64,000 nt of DNA from a virus (IMGVR_UViG_3300042523_000478:27987-91986), one strand, 5' to 3'; positions 2,282 to 63,516 are shown, counted from the first letter of the stretch. The notes: generated from the letters alone by a model not told the origin. Made by a program: numbers and translations.

Positions 2282-5200
2282 TTAAAGAGATATTTTTAAT
2301 GTACCACTATCATTCCATACGTATCCGGTTATCCCAGGATCAGTAGTTGGTAAACCATCCATTCTTACTTCAGTAGTCGGTTGTCCACCTCCACTTACAG
2401 TAAAGTTATTAACATATGTGTGATATGGTCTATCAGAAGTTATATTACAACCAACAATATGTGAGTGAATACAAGTCGCTTTGTTTGAACACCCTCCGAT
2501 AATTGATGTGAAATCTCCTGCCGATGTGTTAAGAGTTCCTCCACCAACAGTTGCGTTTAAACCTACCGATGTGTTAGATAAACCTCCAGATACAGTACCG
2601 TTGGTTGACGATGATCTAACAACGTTAGATCTACCACCACCAATGTAACCATACTGACCACAAACTTTATTTCCACAACCACCAAATATACTACCAAAAG
2701 ATGATGGAGATAATACCATATTATTATAACCACCCCCAATTGACCCATAAAGACATGAGTTTGTGTTTAATCTACCTCCACTAATCACAGAACCACAAGC
2801 GGTTAATGTATTAATATTACAAGCACCACCCCCAATTGTTGAATTCCATATTAAAGATTGGTTACTAAATCCACCAGCAACTACGGTTGAAACCCCTGAT
2901 GAAATATTTAACATACCCCCACCAACTACGGTTTGATAACATGATGATGTATTACTACAACCACCACCAATAAATGAGTAATATCCAGAACTTGTATTAG
3001 ATCTACCTCCCGCAATTGTTGAATAAGGGGAAGCGGCATAGTTATTAAAACCACCTAAAATTGAAGATCCGTTAGAATATGAAGAGTTAGTACAACCTAA
3101 CGCAATTGACGAATTTGCTGAAGCTATGTTTGAGTTTCCAGCCCTTATTGAAGAACCTACTCCAGTACCCGCAACTATAACACCAGTTAATCCAGTAAAT
3201 GTAATTCCACCAATAGAAACTGTTCCGTTTTGTCTTTCTAAGTTTAAGATACCAGTACTATTATCAAATGTACCTCCAGTTACATAATAATCATTATTTA
3301 AGAAACCAGTTGCGGTAACAACGTTTCCATTATTTAATGATAAATCTAAAGTTCCGTTAGAGTATGTTGCTCCAGTTACAAAATTATTTAATGTTTGGAA
3401 TCCTAATACACTGATTGGGGCTTGTCCATTATTTTGGAGTAATGTTAATTCTCCAGTTGACGCACTATAAGTAGCTCCGGTTAAGAATGTATCCGTACCA
3501 CCTGTATAAAGTCCATTTATTGTAACAGAACCATTTTGTCTATCTAATGTTATTGAACCATTAGAATAAGTTCCACCAGTTACATAGTAATCTGTGAATC
3601 CTGTAATTGTTACTGTTGATCCGTCAGTATTTGTTAAAGTTAAATCTCCAGCAGCAAAAGTACCACCAGTTAAGAACACATCAGTGTATCCAGTTGTAAA
3701 CCCTGACACATCAACTGTTTGTCCAGATGTGTTTGTAAATGTTACAACACCTGTACTAGAATTATATGTACCTCCGGTTAAACCTAAGTCAGTTGCTAAA
3801 ATCCCTAAACTTACCGTATAATCGTTACCATCGTTAACGGATGCCGTTAATGTAAATCCACTAGTGTCAAATGTTAAACCAGTTAAGAAATAATCTGTTG
3901 TTGACGAACCAACAACAACATTACCTGAACCATCAACCGCTAAGTTTGAAACTGGAGTTGTTGCTCCTACTGTTTGAATATTTAAATATGGTACGTAAAC
4001 AGTGTCGTTATTAGTTGATATAATATTTTGACCACCAACAACTGCACTTCTAGTTCCAACTGCGGTATTATTACAACCACCAAGTATCATTGAATATAAA
4101 CCGGATGTTGTATTTAATCTACCCCCACTAATCACTGACCCACAAGCGGTTGGTAATGTTGTGTTACACGCACCACCACCAATTGTTGAATTCCATATTG
4201 ATGCTGCGTTACGGTAACCTCCACTTACTGTTGTTGATACTCCAGAAGATGTATTACTGTAACCACCACCAATTGATGCGCTTACGCAAGTTGATTTATT
4301 ATATCCACCACCACCAATTGATGAATAGCACCCTAGTGATATGTTATAAAGTCCACCACCAATTGATGACTGAGTCCCTAATGATGTATTATTCCATCCA
4401 CCTCCAATTGAAGATTGAACCCCTAATGATGTGTTAAAACACCCACCACCAACAGTAGCTTGATTATTACAAGTTTTATTACCCCAACCACCAACAATAC
4501 TTGACATATAACCTTGTGTTTGGTTTGAATAACCTCCACCAACAAATGAATACGCACCAGTCGCAGAGTTAAAATAACCACCCGCAACTGTATCGGTAAC
4601 GCTGTTTGCAAGGTTGGATACACCTCCACCAACAGTAGCACCATACTGTGTTGCTACGTTATTATAACCACCAATTACTGTTGAATATTGTCCCGAAGCA
4701 CTGTTATTATTATTTTTTCTAACTGTTGAGGATCCTCCTGTCCCCGCTATAATAACTGCGTCATCAATTCCAGAAATATTAACAGTACCGTTTTGTTGTT
4801 GTATTGTTATTGTTCCTGTTGATGGTGTGTAATATCCTCCAGTTACGTAAACATCTGTGTATCCAGTTAAGAAACCGGTAACATTAAATGTTCCTCCACT
4901 ACTATTTGTAAATGTTGCGGTACCACTGTTAAGGTCATAAGTACCTCCAGTAATTGTCATATCTGAAGAAAGTATACCTAAATTAACCGTATCGGTAAAT
5001 CCGTCATTTCTTTCTATTGTTAAATCATAATTAAGAGTATCAAAAGTCATTCCGGTAACATAAATGTCCGTAAACCCTGTTGTAAACCCGGTTATTAAAA
5101 CAGATTGTATTTGACTATCTAACGTTAAAGTTCCCGTATTGTTATCATATGTTCCTCCTGTAACATATGAATCTAATGCCGTAAATCCTGTGATTGTTAC

Positions 5201-6478: not shown

Positions 6479-8665
6479 CTAAATTAAAAAACTTGTTGTG
6501 GTGGTTGTGGTATGTCCCCCAATAGTGTAAGTAAAATCATTTGGTTCACAAACTACTATATCACAATCAGGACAAAATGGGTTAAACATCCTAAATTTTT
6601 CCTTTAATAAATTAAAGTTGTGTCTTATTTCTGAAGCATTTATTGGTTCAACATACATTCTAAATTGTGAAATACCACCTTCAAAAGTACCCCCAAATTC
6701 TTTTTCTAATAAAATATTTGTTGTTAATCCGGATAATGATGTTCCGGACAAAATTGATGTTGGAAAACACTCTGGGTCTTGAATATAATTACTATAAGGA
6801 AGGGTACAAGAAGAAAATGTTAAATTTTCGTGAAGACCCTGAGTTCCCCCTCCCCAAGATATATTAAAAGGAACCCCTAATTGTTTTTCTTTATCGGTAT
6901 TTAAAGCTCTTGGTATCACTTCCTCAAAGTCCTCAATTGTATAATGTAGTTTACCGTTAACATATATTTTTAATCTACCATCCCTAAATTTTTTATCTTC
7001 AATCCAACTATAATTAAGGTTAACAATATCAACACTTAATTCTATTTTTAACCCATTAGTATAAGGAGGTTTAATTAGTTCAACGGAATTGTTTGCCAAA
7101 CTTTCTAAAGGTTCTGTTTTTGTAATATTACCTAACCCACCTCTGTACCATAAGTCACAATTGTCCAAATATGAATATCTTTCCCATACAACATCAAGTA
7201 AAAACCAATGTTCTAAATTTAAAAATTCTGGATTAATATTTTCACAATAAGAGTATATTGGAGGAGTACACCATTCTTGTATTGTATAACCTGTAACAAA
7301 TGTTTGACCTGTTATTGTGGTTCCTGTTGTAATACAATCTCCGGTAAACTTAAGAACTTTAATTCCAATACCAGGATTTTTAGGGTCTCCACATAATTTA
7401 AATGAAATATTATTTGACATAGAATCATATAAAGGGTCTTTCTCACAAGTATCCTCAATTGAAGTGTAACCTGTTGGGGTGCAATCCAAACAATCCAAAC
7501 AAGTATCGCAAACAGCACAACTTGGAGTACAAACCGGAACAATGTGATCACAAGTTGGTATTGGACTTGGTGTAGGTGTTGGTGTAGGTGTTGGGGGTAT
7601 TATTGTTACACAAGGGTGATTAAAACATTCCCACCCACAAGTTAAACAAGCGGAGTCTCCACATCCACACCCACAAGTTAATTTTTTTTCAGTTAACCCA
7701 CCACATTTGTCACAACCATAATTTAAATGAGGGTCATATTGACCATTTATAGATCTTGGGGGATACACAAAAATACATCTACTATTTGTTATAGTTTCAT
7801 TACAACAAGCGCAAGTTTGTAAACAATTGGATAAAGGGGTGGTAACTCTAGTATAACCGGTAAAACAATTTGGTGTTCCATCGGCGTAATGATAAAACTT
7901 ATTTTCCGCCCTAGTCCCCAAATAAAAAAAAGTATTTTTGTTTTCAGGATAAATTAAATTTAAAGTTGTTTCTCCAGTTGAGGGACCAAACTCATCGCAG
8001 AATCTTGGTTTTAAAACCATTTCAACAGACCAACCTTTATTTATTCTTTCCGGTAAAATTTCATAATCATAACCAAAAAGTTTATAAAATCCCTGATAGA
8101 ACCCACCATACAATTCGTGGTATTTACCTGCGGTTGGGTCTATCTTACTAACAACCTCATATAAGGTATAATTAGATATACCAGAAAATTTATTATATTC
8201 ACCAGTATAACCAGTTACTTGTATTAACTTTAACCTTCTATCAACGTGTAACCTATCAAATTTAACGGTGTCGTCAAATAAACCATTTGTAAAAAATAAT
8301 TCTTCTCCAGACATTTTATTAACCAAACCATTATCAATACCTGTTAACCCAATATCACAAACGGTTGATGCCGAATAATTACAAAAATTTTCTTTTTTTG
8401 GGTTATAATAATTTTGGGAAACAAATATATTGTTTGGGTTAAAATTTTTATATGTTAATGTTAAATCCTGTGCGGTTAATGGGTTATCAATATCAAAGTA
8501 TACCGGTAACTTATTACCATATGTTTCTGCAATTAAATATGGTGAAAATATAACCTCCTCATAATAATCCCTTTCATCTGAAGTTAGGGACATGTCCATA
8601 CTATCAGAAATCATATTAAGATTATATTTTTTATAAACGTATTGGTTAATATTTTGTTGTGCCAT
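6479..8665 (-). CDS. Putative virion protein; LamG/concanavalin-like segments around a Cys-rich insert and PTPTP linker
   Basis: C-terminal GRLKIYVNG...FEGGISQFRMY resembles LamG; many CxxC motifs; late motif upstream. Confidence 0.5.
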   Translation of the reverse strand: MAQQNINQYVYKKYNLNMISDSMDMSLTSDERDYYEEVIFSPYLIAETYGNKLPVYFDIDNPLTAQDLTLTYKNFNPNNIFVSQNYYNPKKENFCNYSASTVCDIGLTGIDNGLVNKMSGEELFFTNGLFDDTVKFDRLHVDRRLKLIQVTGYTGEYNKFSGISNYTLYEVVSKIDPTAGKYHELYGGFYQGFYKLFGYDYEILPERINKGWSVEMVLKPRFCDEFGPSTGETTLNLIYPENKNTFFYLGTRAENKFYHYADGTPNCFTGYTRVTTPLSNCLQTCACCNETITNSRCIFVYPPRSINGQYDPHLNYGCDKCGGLTEKKLTCGCGCGDSACLTCGWECFNHPCVTIIPPTPTPTPTPSPIPTCDHIVPVCTPSCAVCDTCLDCLDCTPTGYTSIEDTCEKDPLYDSMSNNISFKLCGDPKNPGIGIKVLKFTGDCITTGTTITGQTFVTGYTIQEWCTPPIYSYCENINPEFLNLEHWFLLDVVWERYSYLDNCDLWYRGGLGNITKTEPLESLANNSVELIKPPYTNGLKIELSVDIVNLNYSWIEDKKFRDGRLKIYVNGKLHYTIEDFEEVIPRALNTDKEKQLGVPFNISWGGGTQGLHENLTFSSCTLPYSNYIQDPECFPTSILSGTSLSGLTTNILLEKEFGGTFEGGISQFRMYVEPINASEIRHNFNLLKEKFRMFNPFCPDCDIVVCEPNDFTYTIGGHTTTTTTSFLI

Positions 8666-55545: not shown

Positions 55546-55576
55546 TTTGATTATTGTAATTTTACATTTATATTTG
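55546..55576 (+). promoter_or_regulatory. Bacteroidota-type promoter of tmRNA
   Basis: TTTG - 19 nt - TATATTTG, followed by boxA-like AAGTTATTTGACAT. Confidence 0.75.
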
Positions 55577-55607: not shown

Positions 55608-56007
55608 GGGGGTGTTTTTGGATTTGACAGGTATTGGCTGAAGACAAAGGGCACGTGGAGACTGAATTAATCTCCTTAAAAACTGATTCACAAAAACAAT
55701 CGGCGACGTTTTATCGAAAATGGAAACTCTTGGTTTACTAAGAGGTTCTGAAGTTACTGTAGCCTAATAGGTTTACGGAAACGGGGGGTCGGTCAGACAG
55801 ATAACCTAGCAACAGAAGTCGTTGATGAGTTTGTTTTCACTCTAAAAGAAGACAAAACGGGCGTGGTTCCCCGTAAGAACTACCACCGTCGCTGAGTGGT
55901 GTGAGAACTCAGATATTTCGGAAGGTATAACAAACCTTGACCTAAACGTGTAGTCCTTCTCTGACAGGATATTATGGACCGGAGTTCGAGCCTCCGCACC
56001 TCCACCA
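55608..56007 (+). ncRNA. ssrA: tmRNA
   Basis: 5' GGGGGTG pairs with 3' CACCTCC-A-CCA with G3.U70; GGATTTGAC D-like loop; T arm CGGAG-TTCGAGC-CTCCG; internal tag ORF 55702-55767. Confidence 0.92.
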
Positions 56008-56013
56008 AATGTA

Positions 56014-56041
56014 AACCTCATCTTCGGATGGGGTTTTTTTA
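56014..56041 (+). terminator. tmRNA terminator
   Basis: AAACCTCATC-TTCG-GATGGGGTTT followed by a T-run. Confidence 0.85.
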
Positions 56042-56137
56042 TGCGCCATAATTATATTTTAGTGTTGTGCGAATATTATATTTTAAAGCACAAAAAAACC
56101 CACCAAAAGGTAGGTTCCGTTTTAAAATAATATAAAA

Positions 56138-56311
56138 TTATTTTTTTGTTGTGTCAGAAACAACTTCACTTGTTGTTAAAGTAGAATCTGATACGTTTGT
56201 TACTTCCTCAGTCGAAACTTCAGTTGTTGCTCCATTTCCGTTTTCACCACAAGCCGTCATAAGAGTGATTGTCGTAAAAATAGCGATAGAAAAGAAAATT
56301 AATTTTTGCAT
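56138..56311 (-). CDS. 57-aa lipoprotein (not in ORF track)
   Basis: MQKLIFFSIAIFTTITLMTA-CGENG...; lipobox Cys21; Ser/Thr/Glu-rich tail; terminator at ~56092-56118. Confidence 0.75.
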   Translation of the reverse strand: MQKLIFFSIAIFTTITLMTACGENGNGATTEVSTEEVTNVSDSTLTTSEVVSDTTKK

Positions 56312-56349
56312 GCTTTCAATTTAATTTAAAGTTTATGTTAAAAATAAAA

Positions 56350-57215
56350 ACCTGAGATTACAGTTTTTTTTAAGTGTCTTTCGAGTCATTATTGGTTCTA
56401 CTCTTATCCACAGGATTTTGTCCCGTAACACTCATTACCGATTGGTTAGACCAATCACCCCTTGACGATACAACTACTCTCTTACTACTCCTGTCTCCCC
56501 AAGATTGCGTCCTGGTTCGGTCTTCGACGACCTAGAGATTTTTCATAAAAATACGGTCAAACTTGCGGTTATCACGTTCCACTGACAGCCAGTGAATAGG
56601 TGGGTAACTTCCGTTATATCGTAACGAACACTTTTGCTTTTTAGTTATAAGTTTTACCTTTTCTATAAAAGTTTTTGTGTTGTGGATTGATCAAAGTTGT
56701 GGTCCGTCTTAAGCTTCATTATCTTTTGAATAACAAAATACCAAACAACTCCGTGAAATGTCCCCATTTCAATATTTCAAGACTACTTCGAAACTAACCC
56801 CTTGGTAGAAGTTGGTTAAGGTCAATAACGGCACCACCCGTACATTAACATACCTTTCGGTTTTAAGTATCCTATGATACTGGAACCCGCAATAACAACA
56901 TTGGAAATATTGATTCATGCAACGTCCCTACGAGTTATTCCTATTAGAGTTCCCTCCTCAACAAGATGACCCACATCACCTCGTCATAAAATCACTTTCC
57001 CTACACCGTTGGCCTCGGTACTAAAGATTTTATGGTATCTCGCCTGTGTACTCGACCTCAATATTCCGAAGACTATTAAGACGCAAACCCGTTACACTTG
57101 GGGGTCACTTTATCCTACTTTCGTAGTTTATTTTATGGACTATACACGGCCCAATATCTTTATCAGTTTCACTCTTAAACCCGAAGGTTCTTAAGATAAT
57201 CCTGAACGGATAATA
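56350..57215 (-). ncRNA. Large ornate structured RNA (~860 nt), GOLLD-like
   Basis: No credible ORF, GC above flanks, many GNRA/UUCG-capped hairpins and AGUA/GAA E-loop-like motifs, 3' GCAAAAG...GUAAUCUCAGG; preceded by tandem promoters and boxA. Family name is from recall and needs a covariance-model check. Confidence 0.7.
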
Positions 57216-57223
57216 TCTAAAAT

Positions 57224-57377
57224 TTCAAAGAACTTTATCGGACGTTTCCGATTTGTTTTACAAAGATAAGAATACTTTTTGAATTTTCCAAATTTTTTCT
57301 AAACTTTTTTTTATTTCTTATTTGGACGTTTCCAAATTTGTTTTACAAAGTTACAACATTTATTTTCTTTTGTCAAG
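57224..57377 (-). promoter_or_regulatory. Tandem Bacteroidota-type promoters with duplicated hairpin and boxA-like element
   Basis: TTTG-N20-TATCTTTG (57261-57292) and CTTG-N20-TAACTTTG (57346-57377), each followed by TAAAACAAAT..GGAAACGTCC; AAGTTCTTTGAAAT follows the proximal copy. Confidence 0.75.
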
Positions 57378-57394: not shown

Positions 57395-57541
57395 TTAGTA
57401 TTTTTCCATAAACACTTTTTTGGTTCCGTATTTACGAGCCTGAGCGTGAGCGAACTCCTCATTTGGTGTGTAATACGTTTTTCCGTCGGATCCTAAATAA
57501 TAGAATAATCTATTCTCCTCCATTTTTGTTTCTTCATTCAT
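57395..57541 (-). CDS. 48-aa hypothetical protein (not in ORF track)
   Basis: MNEETKMEENRLFYYLGSDGKTYYTPNEEFAHAQARKYGTKKVFMEKY; host-type promoter upstream (~57600). Confidence 0.6.
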   Translation of the reverse strand: MNEETKMEENRLFYYLGSDGKTYYTPNEEFAHAQARKYGTKKVFMEKY

Positions 57542-57635
57542 ACTTATGTATTTTTTAAAGGGTTAATATTAAAAGAACTTGTTTTTTGTAATTATGATTC
57601 AAATTTAATACAAATATTTTGATTTAACAATATTT

Positions 57636-59279
57636 TCAAAGAAGTTTTTTCATAATATTTTTCATTCGAATAATATCTTCATTAATATCTTCTTTTTTTT
57701 CTCCATAAATTTCGTCAAATTTTTTAAAAAATTGTTTTAATTTATCTAAATTAATTTCACTTTTTTTGTTGTTTTCATCGTTAACAGAAACAACAAATTT
57801 TTCAGCAATTTTTTTAACTTCCTCTTTATTAAAATCTTCGTTATTTAATTTTTTATCAAAATAATTTAAACATTCTTCTAAAGATTTAAAATCTTCGGTT
57901 TTAACAGAAGTCATCAAACCTTCAACATCAGAATCAATTTCAACAGATTCTTTTATTGATCCTCCAGTATAATATATGTGCCAAGGTTCTGATTCTCTTA
58001 AAACTCCTTTTGATGGGTACGACACTTTAAACCCATAATCTGGGGCGTTATCTTTTAACCAATTTTTAAGTTCTGGTCTTGAATTCCACCATCCAGGTTC
58101 AGTACTAAAAAGGTCAAAAGTTTTACCAGTACTATGTTGTGAAAACCCAGGTAAAGCACTCCATTTTTGTCTATCCGAAATTTTCTTTTCAGAATTAGGT
58201 TTTTTACAGAAAGTACGTATTTGTGTAGTGTAAGACCTCCAATCAGATACAACGGTATATTTTTTAACTTCCGGGTATTTTAATGCAAATGCCGATAATA
58301 ATTTTAGTAATGATTTTTTTGCGTTAGGATCAATACCTCCATTATCTGGATAATAATCAACCCCTTCTTGAGATTTTTCCAATTTAATGTGGTTACTTGT
58401 TATTTTTTCATTAAAACAATCCTCAACCCCTTTTAAAGCTATTTTTATTTCTGATGGTAAATCGTTAATAATGTCTTTATATTCATCAGAATCTTCAACA
58501 TCATCATCAGAATCTTCAACGTCACCTAATTTCCATAGAACAATAGATACAAATACTATTTGTGTGTAGATATTAGTAATACCATCTGCCTTTAACTTAG
58601 TTAATACGGACTCTATTGTTTTTTTCTCTTCTTTAGAAAAACTATCATATATTAATTTGTTAATGACCGTACCATCAACCTTTGTTGGTTCAGTTACTTC
58701 CTCTTTGGAGTTATTAGTTGGTGGTGCTGAGGATACTCCAGTTTTATTTGAAATGTGTAAATGGTTGTAATGATTCCCTCCAGTGTTTGTATGCCATAAA
58801 ACCGCCTTGTCATTACCCCTCTCGGTATTCCACGTATATCCCATTGACACTAAAGCGTTTTTTAATTTAAACCCCAAATTTCTAAATTTTTCCAACCCAT
58901 TTGTTGAGTTACTAGCACCTCCGGAACCAATACCGTCTAATATTGCAACATCAACACCGGTACCGTTCATATGTCTACTTATACTCTTAGACCCTTTTAC
59001 TGTTCTATTATGTCCTGTTTTAGCGGTAGTTATTGTTGCAACAACTCCTACAGATTTTGCCGCAGAATTTATATCATCTAATAACGGTTTATTTACAGAA
59101 TCGTTTTGAGTTCCATCCTTATCATATTTTAGGTTACTATAACCAGTACTACTAAGTTTAACTAAATTATAATCTTCATTAATAATATTTTTGTTATTCA
59201 ATATGTAATAATACTTTGAAACGATTTCTTTTATTATATCATTTTCTTTTATACCATTTTTATAAAAATTATTTCTCAT
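57636..59279 (-). CDS. Peptidoglycan hydrolase with two M15-like zinc peptidase domains
   Basis: Domain 1 SRHMNGTGVD...HYNHLH; domain 2 (VanY-like) SDWRSY..Q...PGFSQHSTGKTFD...EPWH. True start is probably the ATG at 59279, 4 nt after TATTTAT. Confidence 0.75.
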   Translation of the reverse strand: MRNNFYKNGIKENDIIKEIVSKYYYILNNKNIINEDYNLVKLSSTGYSNLKYDKDGTQNDSVNKPLLDDINSAAKSVGVVATITTAKTGHNRTVKGSKSISRHMNGTGVDVAILDGIGSGGASNSTNGLEKFRNLGFKLKNALVSMGYTWNTERGNDKAVLWHTNTGGNHYNHLHISNKTGVSSAPPTNNSKEEVTEPTKVDGTVINKLIYDSFSKEEKKTIESVLTKLKADGITNIYTQIVFVSIVLWKLGDVEDSDDDVEDSDEYKDIINDLPSEIKIALKGVEDCFNEKITSNHIKLEKSQEGVDYYPDNGGIDPNAKKSLLKLLSAFALKYPEVKKYTVVSDWRSYTTQIRTFCKKPNSEKKISDRQKWSALPGFSQHSTGKTFDLFSTEPGWWNSRPELKNWLKDNAPDYGFKVSYPSKGVLRESEPWHIYYTGGSIKESVEIDSDVEGLMTSVKTEDFKSLEECLNYFDKKLNNEDFNKEEVKKIAEKFVVSVNDENNKKSEINLDKLKQFFKKFDEIYGEKKEDINEDIIRMKNIMKKLL

Positions 59280-62112: not shown

Positions 62113-62208
62113 TTTTATAATAAATACGTATTTTTTTATGTTAAAAAATAACAATATGTTTGTATAACACATATAAACTACTATATGTAGTTTTTAAATT
62201 AACATTTG

Positions 62209-62281
62209 CGGTCCCGACGGGATTCGAACCCGTATCTCGCACCGTGACAGGGTGGAATTGTAACCATTCAACCACGGGACC
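62209..62281 (-). tRNA. tRNA-Asp(GUC)
   Basis: Cloverleaf GGTCCCG...CT GTC AC...GGTTCGAATCC...GGGACC G; CCA not encoded. Confidence 0.9.
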
Positions 62282-62360
62282 AAGTTTATCAGTCTTTCCT
62301 GATCGTCACCCCTAACCCACAGGTATTACCCGTATTGTAGTAAAGCTTGGTTGGCTATAG

Positions 62361-62514
62361 TAGTCAGGACAGGATTCTAACCTGCATGAACACTTTGAAT
62401 TTTACCTACGCACAGTGAGGTAGTGTTCTTCATCATTCGCATTGCCTTTTCAAAATGCACTTATTCAAGGTTGCCGTGCGTGTCACTATGTGTCTATCAT
62501 TCCACCACCTGACT
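62361..62514 (-). ncRNA. tRNA-Leu-framed RNA with ~100-nt insert replacing the anticodon/variable arms
   Basis: Acceptor AGTCAGG/CCTGACT-A, D arm GTGGAATGATAGACAC, T arm GCAGG-TTAGAAT-CCTGT; no canonical anticodon arm. Confidence 0.6.
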
Positions 62515-62610
62515 ATTAACACACTCTTCGGCATTCTACTCCCCGCAACACGGAATTTGTATCTTAGTTAGCCCATCGTCAGCGGTATGGGTACCGAAGT
62601 TTATGTGTCG

Positions 62611-62682
62611 TAGTCCCACCGGGAATCGAACCCGACTTTCCAGGATGAAAACCTGACGACCTAACCGATAGTCGATGGGACC
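62611..62682 (-). tRNA. tRNA-Glu(UUC)
   Basis: GGTCCCA...TCAGG TT TTC AT CCTGG...GGTTCGATTCC...TGGGACT A. Confidence 0.9.
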
Positions 62683-62755
62683 AAAAATAAGGGTAGACAC
62701 GGGTCTAGCTAGCCATCTTTCAGGAAAGGCCCTTACTACTATTCTACCCTTTTAG

Positions 62756-62828
62756 TTGCGGGAGCAGGATTCGAACCTGCGATCTCGGCTTATGAGACCG
62801 AGCGGATAACCATCTTCCACATCCCGCG
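62756..62828 (-). tRNA. tRNA-Met(CAU), initiator-like
   Basis: C1:A72 mismatch (CGCGGGA/TCCCGCA); anticodon loop CT CAT AA. Confidence 0.88.
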
Positions 62829-62833
62829 ATATG

Positions 62834-62907
62834 TAGTTAATAGTGGATTCGAACCAATGACCTATTCCGTATCAGGGAATCGCTCTAACCAACTGAGCTA
62901 ATTAACT
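62834..62907 (-). tRNA. tRNA-Ile(GAU)
   Basis: AGTTAAT/ATTAACT acceptor; ATTCC CT GAT AC GGAAT anticodon arm. Confidence 0.85.
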
Positions 62908-62983
62908 ATATTCTCGTCTTTCCGAGGTGTCAATACGGATATTTTGTGTACAATTCAGGACTCTCGTATTGCTTCCTTAGTTG

Positions 62984-63090
62984 TAGTCAGGACAGGACTC
63001 GAACCTGTACGATAACTGTTGTTACCATCCCATGTTATTGGGACTCGTCTACCACGAGCGTGGACACCACACTCCTTCCGCCACCTGACT
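62984..63090 (-). ncRNA. tRNA-Leu-framed RNA with D-loop hairpin insert and non-canonical anticodon loop
   Basis: Same AGTCAGG/CCTGACT-A acceptor; GAGTGTGG-TGT-CCACGCTC inserted in the D loop; TCCCA-ATAACA-TGGGA 6-nt loop; long variable arm; ACAGG-TTCGAGT-CCTGT T arm. Confidence 0.65.
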
Positions 63091-63100
63091 ATTCTATTTG

Positions 63101-63174
63101 GGTGAATGGTGGGTTACGATCCCACTACCTTCGATACCACAAACCGACACTCTTACGATTGATCTACACACACC
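63101..63174 (-). tRNA. Atypical tRNA-His(GUG)
   Basis: G-1 and C73 present; TCGGT TT GTG GT ATCGA; but the D loop lacks GG, the T loop is ATCGTAA and the acceptor has a mismatch. Confidence 0.6.
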
Positions 63175-63280
63175 ATTTATTTGTAGTTAAGTAGCTGACA
63201 CACACTCTCGTTTCACCATCTTATGTCAACAGGTTAATGCACTTTACGAGTTTCCCGTTTCTTACCACCACAATATTTTA

Positions 63281-63390
63281 ATTTAAATGAACTTCTTTTT
63301 TCTTCACGGGAGTAGGACACCAACCTCTCACTTCCTACCCCCGTTGTTTCTTCTACAAATATATGGCGTTTGTTTTAAACTGCCAAACAA
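63281..63390 (-). promoter_or_regulatory. Host-type promoter, leader hairpin and boxA-like element for the tRNA array
   Basis: TTTG...TATATTTG (63356-63363), GTAGGA..TCCTAC hairpin, AAGTTCATTTAAAT. Confidence 0.6.
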
Positions 63391-63442
63391 TTTGTAAAAT
63401 ATTTTTTATTTTTTTTAAGGTTGTTTTTTTGCCCTTAAAGAG

Positions 63443-63516
63443 CACACAAGGTGGGACTCGAACTTACAAAATCGGGCATCTAAACCCTCCGTGACTACCA
63501 ATTCTACCACTCGTGT
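63443..63516 (-). pseudogene. Degenerate tRNA (UAG anticodon, Leu-like)
   Basis: ACACGAG/CTTGTGT acceptor, D arm with TGG, TTCGAGT loop, but T stem and anticodon stem are mispaired. Confidence 0.5.

Follow-up and report, generated by a model that had tools for sequence, protein, structure and literature searches.

A lake-phage GOLLD RNA gene with a promoter-hairpin-boxA leader like that of Bacteroidota rRNA operons

The 64,000-nt stretch of viral DNA analysed here (the window) carries on its minus strand an authentic GOLLD RNA and no new RNA class; its gene opens with a promoter, a small hairpin and a boxA-like word. Because this is the promoter-hairpin-boxA signal with which Bacteroidota rRNA genes begin, the phage probably borrows the rRNA transcription machinery of its host, and we consider it reasonably likely that the leader recruits rrn-type Nus antitermination for GOLLD transcription. 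The type of promoter, on which the host assignment is based, points to Bacteroidota. The window is part of a 91,986-bp IMG/VR virus record estimated by CheckV to be 31% complete, so the phage would have a genome of roughly 300 kb.

The RNA body and its family

A preliminary description of this region had proposed a GOLLD-like giant RNA and suggested a search with the Rfam GOLLD model, a new RNA class being the alternative. The Rfam scan of the whole window returned a GOLLD (RF02032) match at 56349-56753 on the minus strand scoring 287.7 bits (gathering cut-off 150; E = 3.5e-81), and the contig-wide search returned the same match. It covers model positions 1-416 of 416, which makes the RNA GOLLD proper, and the new-class alternative is not upheld. 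The matched segment is the GOLLD 3′ domain, at the end of which a small hairpin is followed by a U-run.

The RF02032 model represents only the universally conserved 3′ half of GOLLD. In env-38 GOLLD, the 5′ region comprises residues 1-420 and the 3′ region residues 421-833 (PMC12286853). Given this layout and a model limited to the 3′ half, the ~420 nt upstream of the Rfam match should correspond to the 5′ domain, which together with an A-rich linker occupies 56754-57169 (minus strand). The preliminary description had expected covariation among homologues. When 31 distinct relatives were aligned (mean column identity 73%), RNAalifold predicted 108 pairs in the 5′ part, 57 of them with compensatory changes. 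The 5′ domain, of ~400 nt, is structured, separate and less conserved than the 3′ domain, and the total length of the RNA is ~835-905 nt. Folding energy of the whole 907-nt stretch shows a modest gain over shuffles (z = -2.1); the evidence for structure is the covariation, not the folding energy.

All of the hairpins originally picked out in the region were found in place on the minus strand, and the relatives inform on them to different degrees. CTAC-GAAA-GTAG (columns 230-241) and TGAAATG-GGGA-CATTTCA (columns 592-607), both in the 5′ domain, undergo compensatory changes in the 31 relatives. ACC-GAAA-GGT is invariant in the relatives and so uninformative on covariation, GATTGGT-CTA-ACCAATC corresponds to a helix in the Rfam GOLLD consensus, and ACC-TTCG-GGT lies inside a hypervariable spacer and is retained in the closest relatives only. 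A further RNAalifold pairing, of a promoter -7 box with columns 609-613, was rejected as spurious, as the -7 box lies outside the RNA. The region had also been called free of open reading frames; this holds for the minus strand, where 56350-57377 contains no ORF of at least 50 aa, while three short ORFs of 52-61 aa overlap it on the plus strand.

Leader anatomy, rRNA operons and conservation

Two matches to the pattern TTG-N20-TAnnTTTG lie 85 nt apart ahead of the RNA body. The distal promoter P1 (57346-57376, minus strand, as are all leader elements) has the form TTGACA...N...TAACTTTG and can alternatively be read as TTGACA-N17-TAACTT. The proximal promoter P2 (57261-57291), TTTG-N20-TATCTTTG, has a predicted start at ~57257-57255. 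Behind P1, hairpin 1 (ATTTGGA-AACG-TCCAAAT, 57320-57337), read from the sequence, begins ~9 nt past the -7 box. Behind P2 lies the boxB-like hairpin 2 (ATCGGA-AACG-TCCGAT, 57237-57252). Exactly two copies of GGAAACGTCC are present in the 64 kb, at 57333-57324 and 57249-57240, each preceded by a CTTTGTAAAACAAAT repeat and a promoter match. The tandem host-type promoters of the preliminary description, each followed by the same hairpin, are thus both present, as is the boxA-like word that it had placed after the second hairpin. This word, GTTCTTTGAAA, lies at 57233-57223, at about +23 to +33 of P2, and is separated from hairpin 2 by the spacer AAA (57236-57234). The window holds no other copy of it, and even its 9-mer core is found at just two places in the 92-kb contig. 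The hypervariable spacer follows (57170-57222, alignment columns 60-165), with the local hairpins AGATA..ATCC/GGAT..TATCT and AACC-TTCG-GGTT.

The Bacteroidota sigma-A pattern TTG-N18-21-TAnnTTTG, which both promoters fit, has 16 matches in the window compared with 7.1 ± 2.8 in shuffles. Promoter matches of this Bacteroidota type also stand ahead of a phage tmRNA (TTG-N-TATATTTG, 55547-55576, plus strand, by pattern match), ahead of a 48-aa ORF and within a tRNA array (63386-63356, minus strand), where they precede part of the array. Neither the tmRNA promoter nor that in the array has a boxA behind it. In the 92-kb contig, boxA is found only at GOLLD, the sole long untranslated RNA, whereas the tRNA array and the tmRNA are without it; this restriction to the long RNA fits the logic of protecting a long untranslated transcript.

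Bacteroidota 16S loci and their flanks were fetched from a spread of genomes, and 24 of these loci had a complete leader. Of all 8-mers, GTTCTTTG is common to the largest number of these leaders, 21 of the 24, and lies 85-217 nt ahead of the 16S gene; eight leaders contain the 11-mer GTTCTTTGAAA without mismatch. Typically, a TAnnTTTG promoter is followed by a GC-rich hairpin and, 0-13 nt further on, by GTTCTTTGA.., behind which a GTGTG-like word often stands. The distance from -7 box to boxA is 23 nt in one Bacteroidota rrn leader, as against 26-28 nt in GOLLD leaders. A copy of the word also lies in the 16S-23S spacer of all 30 Bacteroidota loci (exact GTTCTTTGA in 27, one mismatch in three). 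Occurrence in both the leader and the 16S-23S spacer is the classic distribution of boxA. GTTCTTTGAAA differs at one position from the gamma-proteobacterial boxA consensus GYTCTTTAANA (PMC5725501).

Other rrn features were sought at the GOLLD locus. A GT-rich boxC is absent after the GOLLD boxA, where the sequence continues as TTTTAGATATTATCC and Bacteroidota rrn leaders show GTGTG-like words. The best duplex for a leader-trailer helix, at -16.8 kcal/mol, does not differ significantly from those with shuffled trailers (-15.8 ± 3.4 kcal/mol), and the GOLLD gene contains no second, internal boxA.

Relatives of the locus were gathered in three independent ways, through the neighbouring 603-aa protein, the hairpin-boxA motif and the GOLLD 3′-domain motif. 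The 3′-domain set is blind to the leader and hence the most informative, and it provided 43 distinct loci with enough upstream sequence. Exact GTTCTTTGAAA is present in 36 of these, 720-800 nt upstream of the 3′-domain motif and at the 5′ start of GOLLD. Among the remaining seven, two carry the variants GTTCTTTGTTT or GTTCTTTTACA (variant cores GTTCTTTG or GTTCTTTT), three are GOLLDs of the Staphylococcus type, which lack boxA and have a sigma-70 promoter, and two are unrelated GC-rich loci. All five loci reached via the neighbouring protein carry GTTCTTTGAAA as well.

Across the 31-sequence alignment GTTCTTT is invariant amid variable neighbouring bases. The stretch that separates the word from the conserved core (GATATTGGGCCGTGTATAGTCC...), the spacer, is swapped for unrelated hairpins, shortened or missing, so that its length ranges from 0 nt (contig L026) to ~100 nt of unrelated hairpins. 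With an invariant word amid varying flanks and spacer lengths, these data argue for a boxA-like word that is read as sequence and forms a module distinct from the folded core. We considered whether GTTCTT forms a GOLLD helix with AAGAAC 40 nt downstream and rejected this, as the partner is altered or deleted in relatives while GTTCTTT is invariant; that this pairing is not kept likewise argues for a word read as sequence, apart from the core.

The hairpin ahead of boxA is present in 37 of 39 boxA-type loci and ends 3-6 nt before boxA in most relatives. Its stem variants preserve pairing (TCGGA/TCCGA, TCAGGA/TCCTGA, TTCGGA/TCCGAA and TTTGGA/TCCAAA), and two relatives (L010 and L015) have TTCGGA/TCCGAA at the hairpin 1 position, a compensatory T-A to C-G change. 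At the hairpin 2 position, the hairpins of two clades are longer and of a quite different kind. Under a strict pattern, 30 of the 39 loci have a promoter match whose end lies 26-28 nt ahead of boxA, and in five more the distance is 55-62 nt. A second, upstream promoter was found in 15 loci, a single promoter in 20 and none under the strict pattern in four; tandem promoters are a feature of a subclade, ~40% of relatives. Taken together, the promoter type, the compensatory hairpins, the rrn-identical word and the invariance of this word in relatives found blind to the leader bear out, at the level of sequence, the rRNA-operon analogy first drawn for this locus.

Two IMG/VR contigs (L014 and L016) retain the GGAAACGTCC hairpin and boxA behind a classical sigma-70 promoter (TTGACT-N17-TATACT), not TAnnTTTG. 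This arrangement is a hint that phages infecting bacteria other than Bacteroidota use such a leader too.

Lake RNA and genome neighbourhood

Twenty lake or freshwater RNA libraries cover approximately one-fifth to one-quarter of a 3-kb query, a share roughly equal to the length of GOLLD. Contigs were placed from four libraries of four studies; they are assembled, and were pooled over relatives at ≥90% identity. The summed contig depth over the GOLLD body (56308-57216) is ~1,000 to 49,000, of the order of 10^3-10^4, with one bin of 0 in run X3. Depth is 20-900 in most bins of the tmRNA, 0 just downstream of GOLLD (56106-56307) and 0-5 over the upstream genes (57419-58500). GOLLD RNA is thus present and abundant and its neighbours are not, although assembled contigs cannot fix starts, ends or levels. 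Transcription of the region, as presumed in the preliminary description, is evident from these deep lake RNA contigs, the depth of which is uncalibrated relative to rRNA.

Contig depth drops sharply at 57217. A single contig at 57105-57265, with a depth of 516, spans boxA and hairpin 2, as compared with depths of ~3,000-4,500 for the near-identical body contigs of the same run (X4). Adapter sequence marks contig ends at 57185 and at 56352, the latter three bases off the 3′ boundary of the Rfam match. The drop at 57217 and the adapter end at 57185 are a weak hint of 5′ trimming, and could equally reflect the variable spacer breaking the contigs of relatives.

Downstream of GOLLD, the tmRNA lies on the plus strand at 55608-56007 (Rfam RF00023, 100.9 bits) and has a terminator of its own at 56013-56036. 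The convergent arrangement reported earlier is therefore present, and the same synteny of GOLLD and then convergent tmRNA recurs in related contigs. In two of these, a group I intron match (RF00028, 90-98 bits) abuts or overlaps the tmRNA (L010, 7035-7258, minus strand, beside a tmRNA at 7231-7637, minus strand; L003, 4822-5045, minus strand), which suggests that the tmRNA gene of relatives is interrupted by an intron. The Rfam scan gave no group I intron match at the tmRNA of the window itself. Between GOLLD and a strong terminator at 56118-56095 lies a 57-aa ORF (56138-56311, minus strand) with a lipoprotein-like N-terminus, a hydrophobic stretch ending in Cys. It is missing in several relatives, in which GOLLD abuts the tmRNA terminator, and the RNA contig depth over it is 0. 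The tRNA array lies near GOLLD in the same record, at 62208-63516. At its upstream end (63442-63516, minus strand), ARAGORN reports a tRNA whose anticodon, TTA, would pair with the stop codon TAA.

Upstream, GOLLD is flanked by the gene of a 603-aa protein that has a VanY/peptidase M15 domain and by a conserved 48-aa ORF (MNEETK...VFMEKY; 57395-57541, minus strand), the latter immediately ahead of the GOLLD promoters. In 35 of 38 lake-type GOLLD loci such an ORF is intact, with a length of 44-58 aa, and ends 57-175 nt before boxA. Relatives of the 48-aa protein amount to 31 distinct sequences, with identities to the window protein of 32-88% in a 27-sequence alignment, and share the consensus MSE..[IF][FY]xY....GxK..TPNxEFA...A.KYGT..VYVEK. 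The protein has no match among Pfam and PHROG families. Its AlphaFold2 (AF2) model is a beta-beta-alpha-beta fold (pLDDT 71), for which Foldseek found nothing significant in the PDB (best E-value 2.5). Given its tight linkage to GOLLD, we regard the 48-aa protein as a candidate GOLLD-associated partner, a lead and not a finding.

A blastn search of the locus against GenBank phages gave no match. A scan of bacterial genomes with the GOLLD 3′-domain pattern gave 18 matches, one of which, in a Staphylococcus borealis prophage, is GOLLD by Rfam. The other 17 are not GOLLD by Rfam and were set aside as chance matches, and no lake-clade host emerged from the scan.

A possible mechanism, its alternatives and known systems

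In the mechanism that we favour, host sigma-A RNA polymerase would start at P2, with the duplicated P1 as a further start in this subclade. The first 20-odd nt of the transcript would form the small hairpin, and 3-4 nt past it GUUCUUUGAAA, the word that serves as boxA in rRNA operons of the host phylum, would be exposed. NusB-S10 would bind GUUCUUUGAAA and, with NusA and NusG, turn the polymerase into an rrn-type, Rho-resistant and fast-elongating complex. This complex would carry the polymerase through ~850-900 nt of untranslated structured RNA and may aid co-transcriptional folding in the manner of a chaperone. Termination would occur at the 3′ hairpin and U-run near 56350, the short leader may be trimmed afterwards, and the RNA of this member may go on to form a cage. 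More tentatively, and at a level of confidence that we would call possible but doubtful, lake-phage GOLLDs may be miniature-rRNA-like as a whole, with the rrn complex both transcribing and folding the RNA, the leader trimmed and the 48-aa protein serving as a dedicated partner.

The same word could be read in other ways. GUUCUUUGAAA might be a GOLLD-specific recognition element unrelated to Nus, either bound by some phage protein, for which the 48-aa protein is one candidate, or engaged in tertiary or quaternary contacts within the mature particle; its identity to boxA would then be coincidental. Its strict conservation in an unpaired state, the adjoining conserved microprotein gene and the missing boxC are all in line with such an element. 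We nonetheless consider this unlikely, as 11-of-11 identity to the leader and spacer word of the host phylum's rrn operons, in the same promoter-hairpin-word geometry, is very improbable by chance, a word-to-core spacer of 0 to ~100 nt is unfit for a fixed structural contact, and the leader seems under-represented relative to the body in RNA contigs. This imbalance, with boxA leader seemingly much rarer than body (516 versus ~3,000-4,500 in run X4), also speaks against a decoy, in which the abundant RNA would titrate NusB-S10 from host rrn and halt ribosome synthesis. A negative boxA could alternatively act through Nus factors that promote termination, as at suhB. Nus factors can indeed repress, depending on context (PMC5725501), and the great abundance of GOLLD RNA would suit a decoy, but the leader geometry copies that of productive rrn leaders, not that of a 5′ UTR overlapping a ribosome-binding site, and we hold a negative or decoy role to be quite improbable.

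Doubt could also fall on the hairpins, since inverted repeats after promoters may act in the DNA, as operators at which a dimeric repressor controls the timing of GOLLD expression, and not as RNA hairpins at all. The palindromes do lie at about +5 to +22 of both promoters, and the GGAAACGTCC core is well conserved. However, the stems vary through compensatory substitutions and a paired insertion (TCGGA/TCCGA, TCAGGA/TCCTGA, TTCGGA/TCCGAA), whole clades have unrelated, longer hairpins at the candidate operator position, and Bacteroidota rrn leaders have unrelated hairpins in the same place, so that operators are a very improbable explanation. The Staphylococcus-type loci, with their sigma-70 promoter and no boxA, indicate that GOLLD can be made without boxA.

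Should Nus antitermination by the leader prove correct, it would explain how an untranslated RNA of ~900 nt escapes Rho and reaches very high levels, and it would tie GOLLD biogenesis to the Nus and ribosome-synthesis machinery. It would also offer experimental handles in the form of boxA mutants, NusB-S10 binding assays and Rho inhibition. For a protein that associates with GOLLD, the linked 48-aa gene offers a concrete candidate, and the miniature-rRNA reading, if true, would provide the GOLLD class with a first biogenesis pathway and a first candidate protein partner.

GOLLD RNA was reportedly described by Weinberg and colleagues in 2009. To our knowledge, it is among the largest non-coding RNAs of bacteria and phages, with a cage larger than the ribosome and a function that is not known. 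Self-assembly is known for env-38 GOLLD only, whose 833-nt RNA forms a D7 homo-14-mer nanocage by cryo-EM (Kretsch et al. 2025, PMC12286853). Like published GOLLDs, the RNA studied here has a full 3′ domain, a less conserved 5′ domain of ~400 nt, an A-rich linker and a phage context near tRNA genes; unlike them, it has no tRNA in or beside the linker. The promoter-hairpin-boxA leader is present here and is unmentioned in published descriptions of GOLLD (PMC12286853), and our literature search found no paper joining GOLLD with boxA or antitermination. ROOL, the other phage-borne cage-forming RNA, is similarly large, ornate and near tRNAs; the Rfam ROOL model has no match in the window, and in sequence and fold the RNA is GOLLD.

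GOLLD itself, the use of boxA by phages (lambda, T7) and boxA outside rRNA (suhB and other genes) are already known. The closest parallel for the arrangement is the bacterial rrn leader (boxB-boxA-boxC; NusA/B/E/G, SuhB and S4), with which the GOLLD leader shares one or more host-type promoters, sometimes in tandem, a hairpin, a boxA a few nt on and a long untranslated structured RNA. It differs from the rrn leader in having no boxC, leader-trailer processing helix or second internal boxA, and in that its product is a phage RNA. BoxA is also found before CRISPR arrays, where a long untranslated transcript is shielded from Rho. Outside rRNA, boxA targets in Proteobacteria include suhB and others (Baniulyte et al. 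2017, PMC5725501), a precedent for boxA in a non-rRNA setting; in contrast to GOLLD, that set consists of cellular genes, and the effect at suhB is repressive.

Among phages, lambda (nutL/nutR) and T7 (boxA downstream of the early promoters A0-A3; Savalia et al. 2010, as cited in PMC3709561) likewise set a host boxA just behind promoters for host polymerase, for termination-resistant transcription. In lambda, boxA precedes boxB and phage protein N is needed, whereas in GOLLD the hairpin precedes boxA, as in rrn. The lambda and T7 elements serve protein-coding early operons of coliphages, while the leader described here would serve a non-coding RNA of a Bacteroidota phage. If the antitermination model holds, this non-coding, Bacteroidota-phage case would join lambda and T7 on the short list of phage uses of boxA.
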